Below, in pieces: positions 2,696-3,396 of a stretch of 5,403 bases of DNA. The notes beneath the pieces are model-generated. The model saw nothing but the letters and a program-made list of their open reading frames with translations, had not been told where the DNA came from and ran no database searches. Position 1 is the stretch's first letter. Every line of letters starts with the position of its first letter. The position numbers and the translations under genes were made by a program. Source of the stretch: a virus (Duplodnaviria; Heunggongvirae; Uroviricota; Caudoviricetes); the IMG/VR virus record IMGVR_UViG_2554235304_000010, positions 1 to 5,403 of that record, one strand, 5' to 3'.

Positions 2696-3187
2696 ATGGA
2701 TCAAAAACAGATTGAAGAAATTGTACGCAGCGTGATGGCGTCAATGGGACAAGCGGCCCCCGCGCCGTCAGAAGCAAAATGCGCCACTACCACCTGTGCA
2801 GCACCGGTGACCTCGGAAAGCTGCGCGCTGGATTTAGGTTCCGCAGAAGCAAAAGCGTGGATTGGCGTTGAAAACCCGCATCGCGCAGACGTATTAACAG
2901 AACTGCGCCGCAGCACCGTGGCTCGCGTCTGTACCGGTCGTGCTGGTCCGCGTCCGCGTACCCAGGCGTTGCTGCGTTTCCTGGCCGATCACTCTCGTTC
3001 GAAAGACACCGTACTCAAAGAAGTGCCGGAAGAGTGGGTGAAAGCGCAGGGCTTGCTGGAAGTCCGCTCTGAAATTAGCGACAAAAATCTCTATCTGACT
3101 CGCCCGGATATGGGCCGCCGCCTGTGTGCAGAGGCTGTTGAAGCGCTGAAAGCGCAGTGTGTAACTTCGCGTTTTTTTCTGGGCTAA
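2696..3187 (+). pseudogene. eutC: Ethanolamine ammonia-lyase small (light) subunit EutC, 3'-truncated; native sequence ends near 3164 and is followed by 7 foreign codons and a stop
   Basis: GGAG at 2682-2685 precedes ATG 2696. The translation [22 protein letters not shown]...[16 protein letters not shown] matches EutC from memory up to about residue 156, then reads TSRFFLG and stops, whereas full-length EutC is about 295 aa. The N-terminal microcompartment-targeting peptide is retained; the catalytic C-terminal half is absent. Confidence 0.88.
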
Positions 3188-3195
3188 TTGGCGCA

Positions 3196-3237
3196 CAATT
3201 CTGGGCGGAGAGAGCGCAACCAAAAAGCCCAGAATTG
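3196..3237. repeat. Hairpin-forming inverted repeat (11-bp stem CAATTCTGGGC / GCCCAGAATTG, 20-nt loop) in the eutC-prophage junction
   Basis: Direct reading: 3196-3206 caattctgggc pairs with 3227-3237 gcccagaattg. A related partial copy ctgggctaattgg sits at 3178-3190. Function unknown. Confidence 0.5.
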
Positions 3238-3396
3238 GACGCTAAATTATTAGTCTCATGCTGATGATTTACCTTCAAAAAATCAGCTCATATCCTGCAC
3301 AGTTCAACGCATTGCGTTGTAAATCGGTGTCCTGGTCATTTGTTGATGCGCGTACATAGCCTATAAACATGGTAGATCACCCTGACAAAAGCAGGA

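Follow-up and report, generated by a model that had tools for sequence, protein, structure and literature searches.

Interruption of eutC by a putative Mu-like transposable prophage in enteropathogenic Escherichia coli E2348/69

Introduction

Ethanolamine genes and phage genes lie side by side in a stretch of viral DNA of 5,403 nucleotides (IMG/VR record IMGVR_UViG_2554235304_000010, positions 1 to 5,403), which is called the window below. The locus raises the question of how a protein-coding gene of the eut operon, eutC, came to end in phage DNA, and what became of the rest of the operon. The original prediction, made from the letters of the window, placed a prophage boundary or a deletion endpoint inside eutC. 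We compared both sides of this break with complete genomes and reference assemblies. The window holds only one phage end, and the far end was read from the reference assemblies of E2348/69.

The host part of the window and its border with the phage contained the following features.

1-66, plus strand: right end of ISEc13 (IS4 family), inserted in eutA (RefSeq; eutA homology starts at 67)
67-1302, plus strand: 3' portion of eutA, the N-terminal part lying upstream of ISEc13 (ORF translation, RefSeq, eutA homology)
1314-2675, plus strand: eutB, intact, 453 aa (ORF translation, RefSeq)
2696-3159, plus strand: 5' portion of eutC, of host origin (ORF translation, comparison with intact eutC, Pfam EutC)
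3156-3159, no strand: AGTG, left copy of a 4-bp target-site duplication (both junctions compared with intact eutC)
3160-3245, plus strand: right (invertase-side, attR-like) prophage end, starting 5'-TGTAAC (end-motif matches, Mu layout)

Results

Break in eutC

The reading frame at 2696-3187 on the plus strand was translated into 163 amino acids. Its host part comprised 154 full codons and the first two bases of codon 155. The frame then crossed into phage DNA and reached a stop at 3187, which gave the truncated protein a 7-residue foreign tail, TSRFFLG. Residues C155 and V156 were still those of native EutC, because the phage end starts with TGT. The frame matched the Pfam EutC profile (PF05985) only at positions 2-98 of 235, short of the full-length match; the E. 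coli protein has 295 amino acids, and the intact gene has 888 bp in EC42405. A switch from EutC to TSRFFLG and a stop, at the place where native EutC was expected to read ANPDVQVV, had been predicted. This was confirmed by eutC of EC42405, which continues GTT GCC AAT CCG GAC GTA CAG GTG GTT, that is, VANPDVQVV.

The eutC comparison covered 5,426 complete E. coli genomes. In more than 5,300 of them, intact eutC aligned to the window only up to 3162, and strains with an intact eut operon were uninterrupted at this place. From the other side, phage homology in other genomes began at 3158-3161. The window matched four assemblies of EPEC O127:H6 E2348/69 at 100% across the junction. The junction was found in no other of the 5,426 complete genomes; a phage in eutC was present in four of them, all E2348/69. 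The exact 29-mer of the junction had no match in metagenome contigs, and the exact 25-mer of the right end had none in GTDB species representatives.

The GC content was 0.572 in 67-3159, compared with 0.480 in 3160-5403 and 0.435 in 3160-3460. The AT-richness predicted downstream of the break was thus seen as a fall from 57.2% to 48.0%. However, the GC content of the whole prophage was 0.535, so the AT-richness was local to the phage end and the tail-fibre region.

Exact junction and target-site duplication

The junction between eutC and the phage was 3159|3160. The homology to eutC seemed to reach 3162 because the phage bases TGT coincide with the next three bases of eutC. For the same reason, the predicted breakpoint, within a few bases of 3164-3167, was near, but the actual one was 5-8 bases further left. 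The boundary was ambiguous by a few bases in E2348/69 alone, and therefore both phage ends were read in nine other genomes, in which phages of the same family had inserted independently; the termini were set from these nine. Compared with intact eutC, the host sequence on the left ran through ...GCGCAGTGTGT, and on the far side it resumed at AGTGTGTTGC after phage ...CCCCACA. A second copy of AGTG was located directly after the far phage end (L002 16152-16155). AGTG occurs once at this place in intact eutC and twice in the lysogen, once on each side of the phage. The other end of the prophage, which the prediction had named as the place to look, therefore yielded both the 3' part of eutC and the target-site duplication, 35.7 kb away.

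The nine other insertions all read 5'-TGTAAC...CCCACA-3' and were flanked by a 4-bp direct repeat. The repeats in the relatives (L004-L006, L008-L016) were GAAT, GAAG, GATG, GATA, CAAA, TCTC, TCAG and CAAA. Together with E2348/69, a 4-bp duplication was found in all ten clean insertions, at ten different sites. The relatives lay in or beside unrelated genes, among them mhpT, an RHS gene, hyfB, scpC and a molybdopterin oxidoreductase gene, as well as close to yeiP and in intergenic DNA, and had no target sequence in common. When the empty hyfB and mhpT sites were rebuilt with a single 4-bp copy, each matched more than 3,000 genomes with 46/46 identity. Owing to the TGT overlap, E2348/69 taken by itself would also fit duplications of 5 bp and 7 bp; both were excluded by the nine other insertions and the two rebuilt empty sites. 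One relative was an exception: the copy in NZ_OY754349.1 (isolate F163; L007) read AGTAAC at its end in place of TGTAAC and lacked a matching repeat in its flanks. Its odd ends may reflect a later rearrangement. This copy sits between phnJ and an ABC-type gene.

TG...CA ends are described for all Mu- and B3-like phages, and the target duplication is given as 5 bp in Mu and as 6 bp in B3 (PMC8705779). The termini in E2348/69 and the nine others, TGTAAC...CCCACA, conformed to this pattern of transposable phages. However, the 4-bp duplication departed from the published 5 or 6 bp. It may be a modest, undocumented point.

The same results bear on the deletion endpoint that was the other half of the prediction. 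A deletion could have fused eutC to a prophage remnant from elsewhere and removed the 3' end of eutC with eutL, eutK and eutR. This is compatible with the window taken alone, and the truncated invertase gene beside the junction could suggest local decay. However, in the reference assemblies the other phage end was followed by the AGTG repeat, the 3' part of eutC and the genes eutL, eutK and eutR, all three intact. In addition, the same terminus was found, at the same base, beside unrelated genes in nine other genomes, and the truncation of the invertase gene was common to the whole family. We consider a deletion very improbable; the part of the prediction that stands is the prophage boundary.

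Content of the prophage

The prophage was 35,736 bp long. Its clean relatives were 35.3-36.0 kb, slightly under the published 36-39 kb. In the RefSeq annotation of E2348/69, a block of phage genes splits eutC into two partial pseudogenes. The block included genes for a CI-type repressor, a Ner-like HTH protein, a "Mu transposase C-terminal domain-containing protein", an AAA ATPase and Mor. It further included holins, an endolysin, a terminase, a DUF935 portal protein and a "Mu-like prophage major head subunit gpT", and, among the tail genes, sheath, tape measure, baseplate and tail fibres. A DNA-methyltransferase gene adjoined the terminase gene (L002 1967-2707).

The transposase matched HTH_Tnp_Mu_1 (E 1e-10) and Mu-transpos_C (E 1e-16) above the Pfam cut-off, and its match to rve, the integrase-type catalytic core, was below it. 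The ATPase gene, directly downstream of the transposase gene, matched AAA_22/TniB. In BLASTP, the transposase was 21% identical to MuA over about 600 aa (E 1e-8). The ATPase was 32% identical to MuB (E 2e-21), and the Ner-like protein was 43% identical to Mu Ner (E 3e-19). The modules ran in Mu-like order, starting with the repressor and closing at the right end with tail fibre, invertible segment and invertase. With this gene content and the features of its ends and insertion sites, the element is a complete Mu-like transposable prophage, but it is no close relative of Mu. The 21% similarity to MuA and the 4-bp duplication both indicated that the family is not close to Mu, and the close relatedness to Mu that defines the genus Muvirus (Mu, D108) was not found. 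No phage transposase matched with at least 60% identity, and the 20 best phage matches listed did not include Mu.

Integration by a tyrosine or serine integrase at an att site inside eutC was also considered. Some temperate phages integrate within protein-coding genes, and there is a fragment of a serine recombinase 100 bp away from the junction. However, no integrase gene was annotated in the 35.7-kb element, and the fragment was the N-terminal remnant of a Gin-type invertase tied to the invertible segment. A conserved att core at a fixed site was likewise missing: the relatives occupied many unrelated sites with no shared target sequence, and the phage was in eutC only in the four E2348/69 genomes of the 5,426. 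These results left site-specific integration with a negligible probability. A native short EutC variant, for which the prediction had allowed in case the EutC sequence it went by was wrong, or a chimera of assembly or sequence, is just as implausible, as thousands of genomes have an intact eutC that reads on as VANPDVQVV and the junction was identical in four separately deposited E2348/69 assemblies with a consistent far junction.

We therefore regard it as nearly certain that, in the E2348/69 lineage, a Mu-like transposable temperate phage was integrated into eutC, at codon 155/156, by DDE transposition. The prediction had called eutC an unusual insertion target compared with tRNA or intergenic att sites. 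The odd target is explained by transposition rather than site-specific integration, and the relatives lie in many unrelated genes. By analogy with Mu, the phage transposase would bind repeated sites, three at each phage end, and the MuB-like ATPase would capture and deliver essentially any target DNA. The 3'-OH CA ends would then be joined to the eutC target with a 4-bp stagger, and gap repair would leave AGTG on both sides of the prophage.

Candidate transposase sites at the phage ends

The 8-mer TTCTGGGC was repeated near both termini. In the window, three copies lay within 75 bp of the terminus, compared with 0.2 expected: 3177-3184 (plus), 3199-3206 (plus) and 3227-3234 (minus). They were offset by 18, 40 and 68 (inverted) from the right end. 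The far end also had three copies, all direct, with offsets of 18, 92 and 143 (L002 16001-16140). Of seven copies in the whole prophage of 35.7 kb, six were thus no more than 150 bp from a terminus. In Mu, R1, R2 and an inverted R3 are packed at the right end, with L1 at the left tip and L2/L3 about 100-150 bp in. The layout of TTCTGGGC in the E2348/69 prophage mirrored R1-R3/L1-L3, but the motif itself was unlike that of Mu. From this likeness of layout, the repeats are candidate transposase-binding sites.

Invertible tail-fibre segment and invertase remnant

The remaining phage part of the window was occupied by the following features.

3253-3370, minus strand: remnant of a Gin/Pin-type serine invertase gene (translation; Resolvase PF00239, below cut-off; comparison with Mu Gin)
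3397-3894, plus strand: silent C-terminal part of the tail fibre
3425-3450, no strand: 26-bp crossover site A, hix/gix-like, with reverse complement TTCTCCCAAACCAACGTTTATGAAAA (BLAST inversion, gix comparison)
3451-5333, no strand: invertible tail-fibre segment (BLAST; Pfam Caudo_TAP twice, Gp53-like_C, Collar)
3894-4487, plus strand: tail-fibre assembly gene
4459-4875, minus strand: second tail-fibre assembly gene
4878-5333, minus strand: expressed C-terminal part of the tail fibre
5334-5359, no strand: 26-bp crossover site B, TTCTCCCAAACCAAGGTTTTCGAGAG (BLAST inversion, gix comparison)
5360-5403, minus strand: constant part of the tail-fibre gene, in frame into the segment and running off the window (L001 21791-22540)

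Crossover sites A and B, inverted relative to each other and on either side of alternative tail-fibre ends as in a Din-type invertible segment (Gin/gix, Pin, Hin, Cin), shared a 14-nt core and resembled the gix sites of Mu. The segment in the window was in the orientation opposite to that in all four RefSeq assemblies of E2348/69, with 3432-5352 aligning reversed to L001 22253-20333 in BLAST. This meant that the source of the window carries the other orientation. The tail-fibre gene stayed in frame in both orientations.

A Din-type system has an adjacent intact invertase gene, and here only 31 codons and a frameshifted stub were present. The 31 codons were 77% identical to residues 1-31 of Mu Gin. 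After a stop, the homology to Gin ran on for about 8 codons more, out of frame, and then ended. The same remnant, annotated as a partial pseudogene, was found in every relative examined. Three other loci on the E2348/69 chromosome matched the 5' end of the invertase gene, which makes inversion of the segment in trans plausible. As judged from these matches, the inversion may rely on the invertases of other prophages. An invertible segment without its own invertase may be a further modest, undocumented point.

Damage to the eut operon

The eut operon was interrupted twice in E2348/69, by ISEc13 in eutA and by the prophage in eutC. Position 1 of the window corresponded to L001 16902, and RefSeq places the ISEc13 transposase at L001 15583-16956 with eutA fragments on both sides. 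The end at 1-66 consisted of the last transposase codons and the terminal inverted repeat AGATCTGATCAAGAGACAG at 48-66. This repeat resembles the inside end of IS50. Positions 34-66 were also considered as a Tn5/IS50 inside end from an engineered deletion strain; this was rejected, as the RefSeq annotation gives ISEc13, which is natural.

The prediction had asked whether eutL, eutK and eutR were absent or displaced. They were not absent: RefSeq places the 3' part of eutC directly after the far phage end, followed by eutL, eutK and eutR, all three intact. They were displaced, as the rest of the operon was 35.7 kb away, behind phage genes that run mostly in the opposite direction. From the two interruptions, ethanolamine ammonia-lyase is predicted to be inactive in E2348/69. 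Since the operon is broken twice, the strain should not catabolise ethanolamine.

The regulator gene eutR appears to be uncoupled from the main eut promoter; to be expressed, it would need a promoter of its own or transcripts that run out of the prophage. At the far end, the repressor gene of the prophage is directed outward, to the 3' part of eutC, eutL, eutK and eutR (L002 15192-16700). A terminator scan found no terminator above chance at the far junction. Read-through into eutR is therefore possible. Promoter and terminator scans of both junctions gave counts at chance level and were uninformative on transcription into or out of the prophage.

Discussion

The E2348/69 prophage shared several features with Mu. 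The gene order was the same, with repressor, ner, A, B ... tail fibre, invertible segment, invertase and right end. The TG...CA termini, the layout of three end sites (candidate sites in E2348/69) at each end, of which the third on the right is inverted, and the near-random insertion into genes with a short target duplication were also the same. In addition, both have an invertible tail-fibre segment of the hix/gix type with two tail-fibre assembly genes. However, the proteins were distant (A 21%, B 32%, Ner 43%), and the target duplication was 4 bp compared with 5 bp in Mu. The com/mom that Mu has between its invertase and its right end was missing from the prophage, and the invertase gene of the prophage was a remnant.

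The closest phage transposases listed were those of Pseudomonas VW-6B, Klebsiella ST405-OXA48phi1.1, Yersinia vB_YpM_Tongde, Haemophilus SuMu and Mannheimia 3927AP2. These SuMu/B3-type and other Mu-like phages had transposases 40-49% identical over near full length, and genomes of similar size (33-39 kb). As none of the matches listed had a transposase identity of at least 50%, this E. coli prophage family had no close named phage in the collection searched. B3-type phages are reported to make 6-bp duplications (PMC8705779), in contrast to the 4 bp observed here.

Another prophage is known to interrupt this operon. CPZ-55 interrupts the eut operon of K-12, and the Eut-negative state of that strain is ascribed to it (PMC6379469). 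It lies between eutA and eutB, just after the stop codon of eutA, with an 8-bp duplication (PMC6379469). In E2348/69, in contrast, eutA and eutB were adjacent, and a transposable phage lay inside the coding sequence of eutC instead. The searchable literature library gave no account of this insertion in eutC, and two candidate papers touched on E2348/69 and eut only in passing.

The insertion is ordinary and already known, as it stands in the RefSeq annotation. The junction itself carries little weight, since it belongs to a published, RefSeq-annotated genome. A 4-bp stagger of a length outside those in PMC8705779, tail-fibre switching by co-resident prophages in place of an own invertase, and an EutR that senses ethanolamine without its consumption form a combined reading that we offer tentatively and with more doubt than confidence.

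In EHEC, eutR is a virulence regulator. If the reading is true, E2348/69 could sense ethanolamine through the intact EutR without consuming it. For work on E2348/69, the prototype EPEC strain, it is useful that the eut operon is broken twice and that the strain is expected to be Eut-negative with eutR intact. In addition, the 4-bp duplication provides a natural data set for how the stagger length is set in Mu-type transpososomes, and the segment without an invertase provides one for host-range switching that depends on other prophages.
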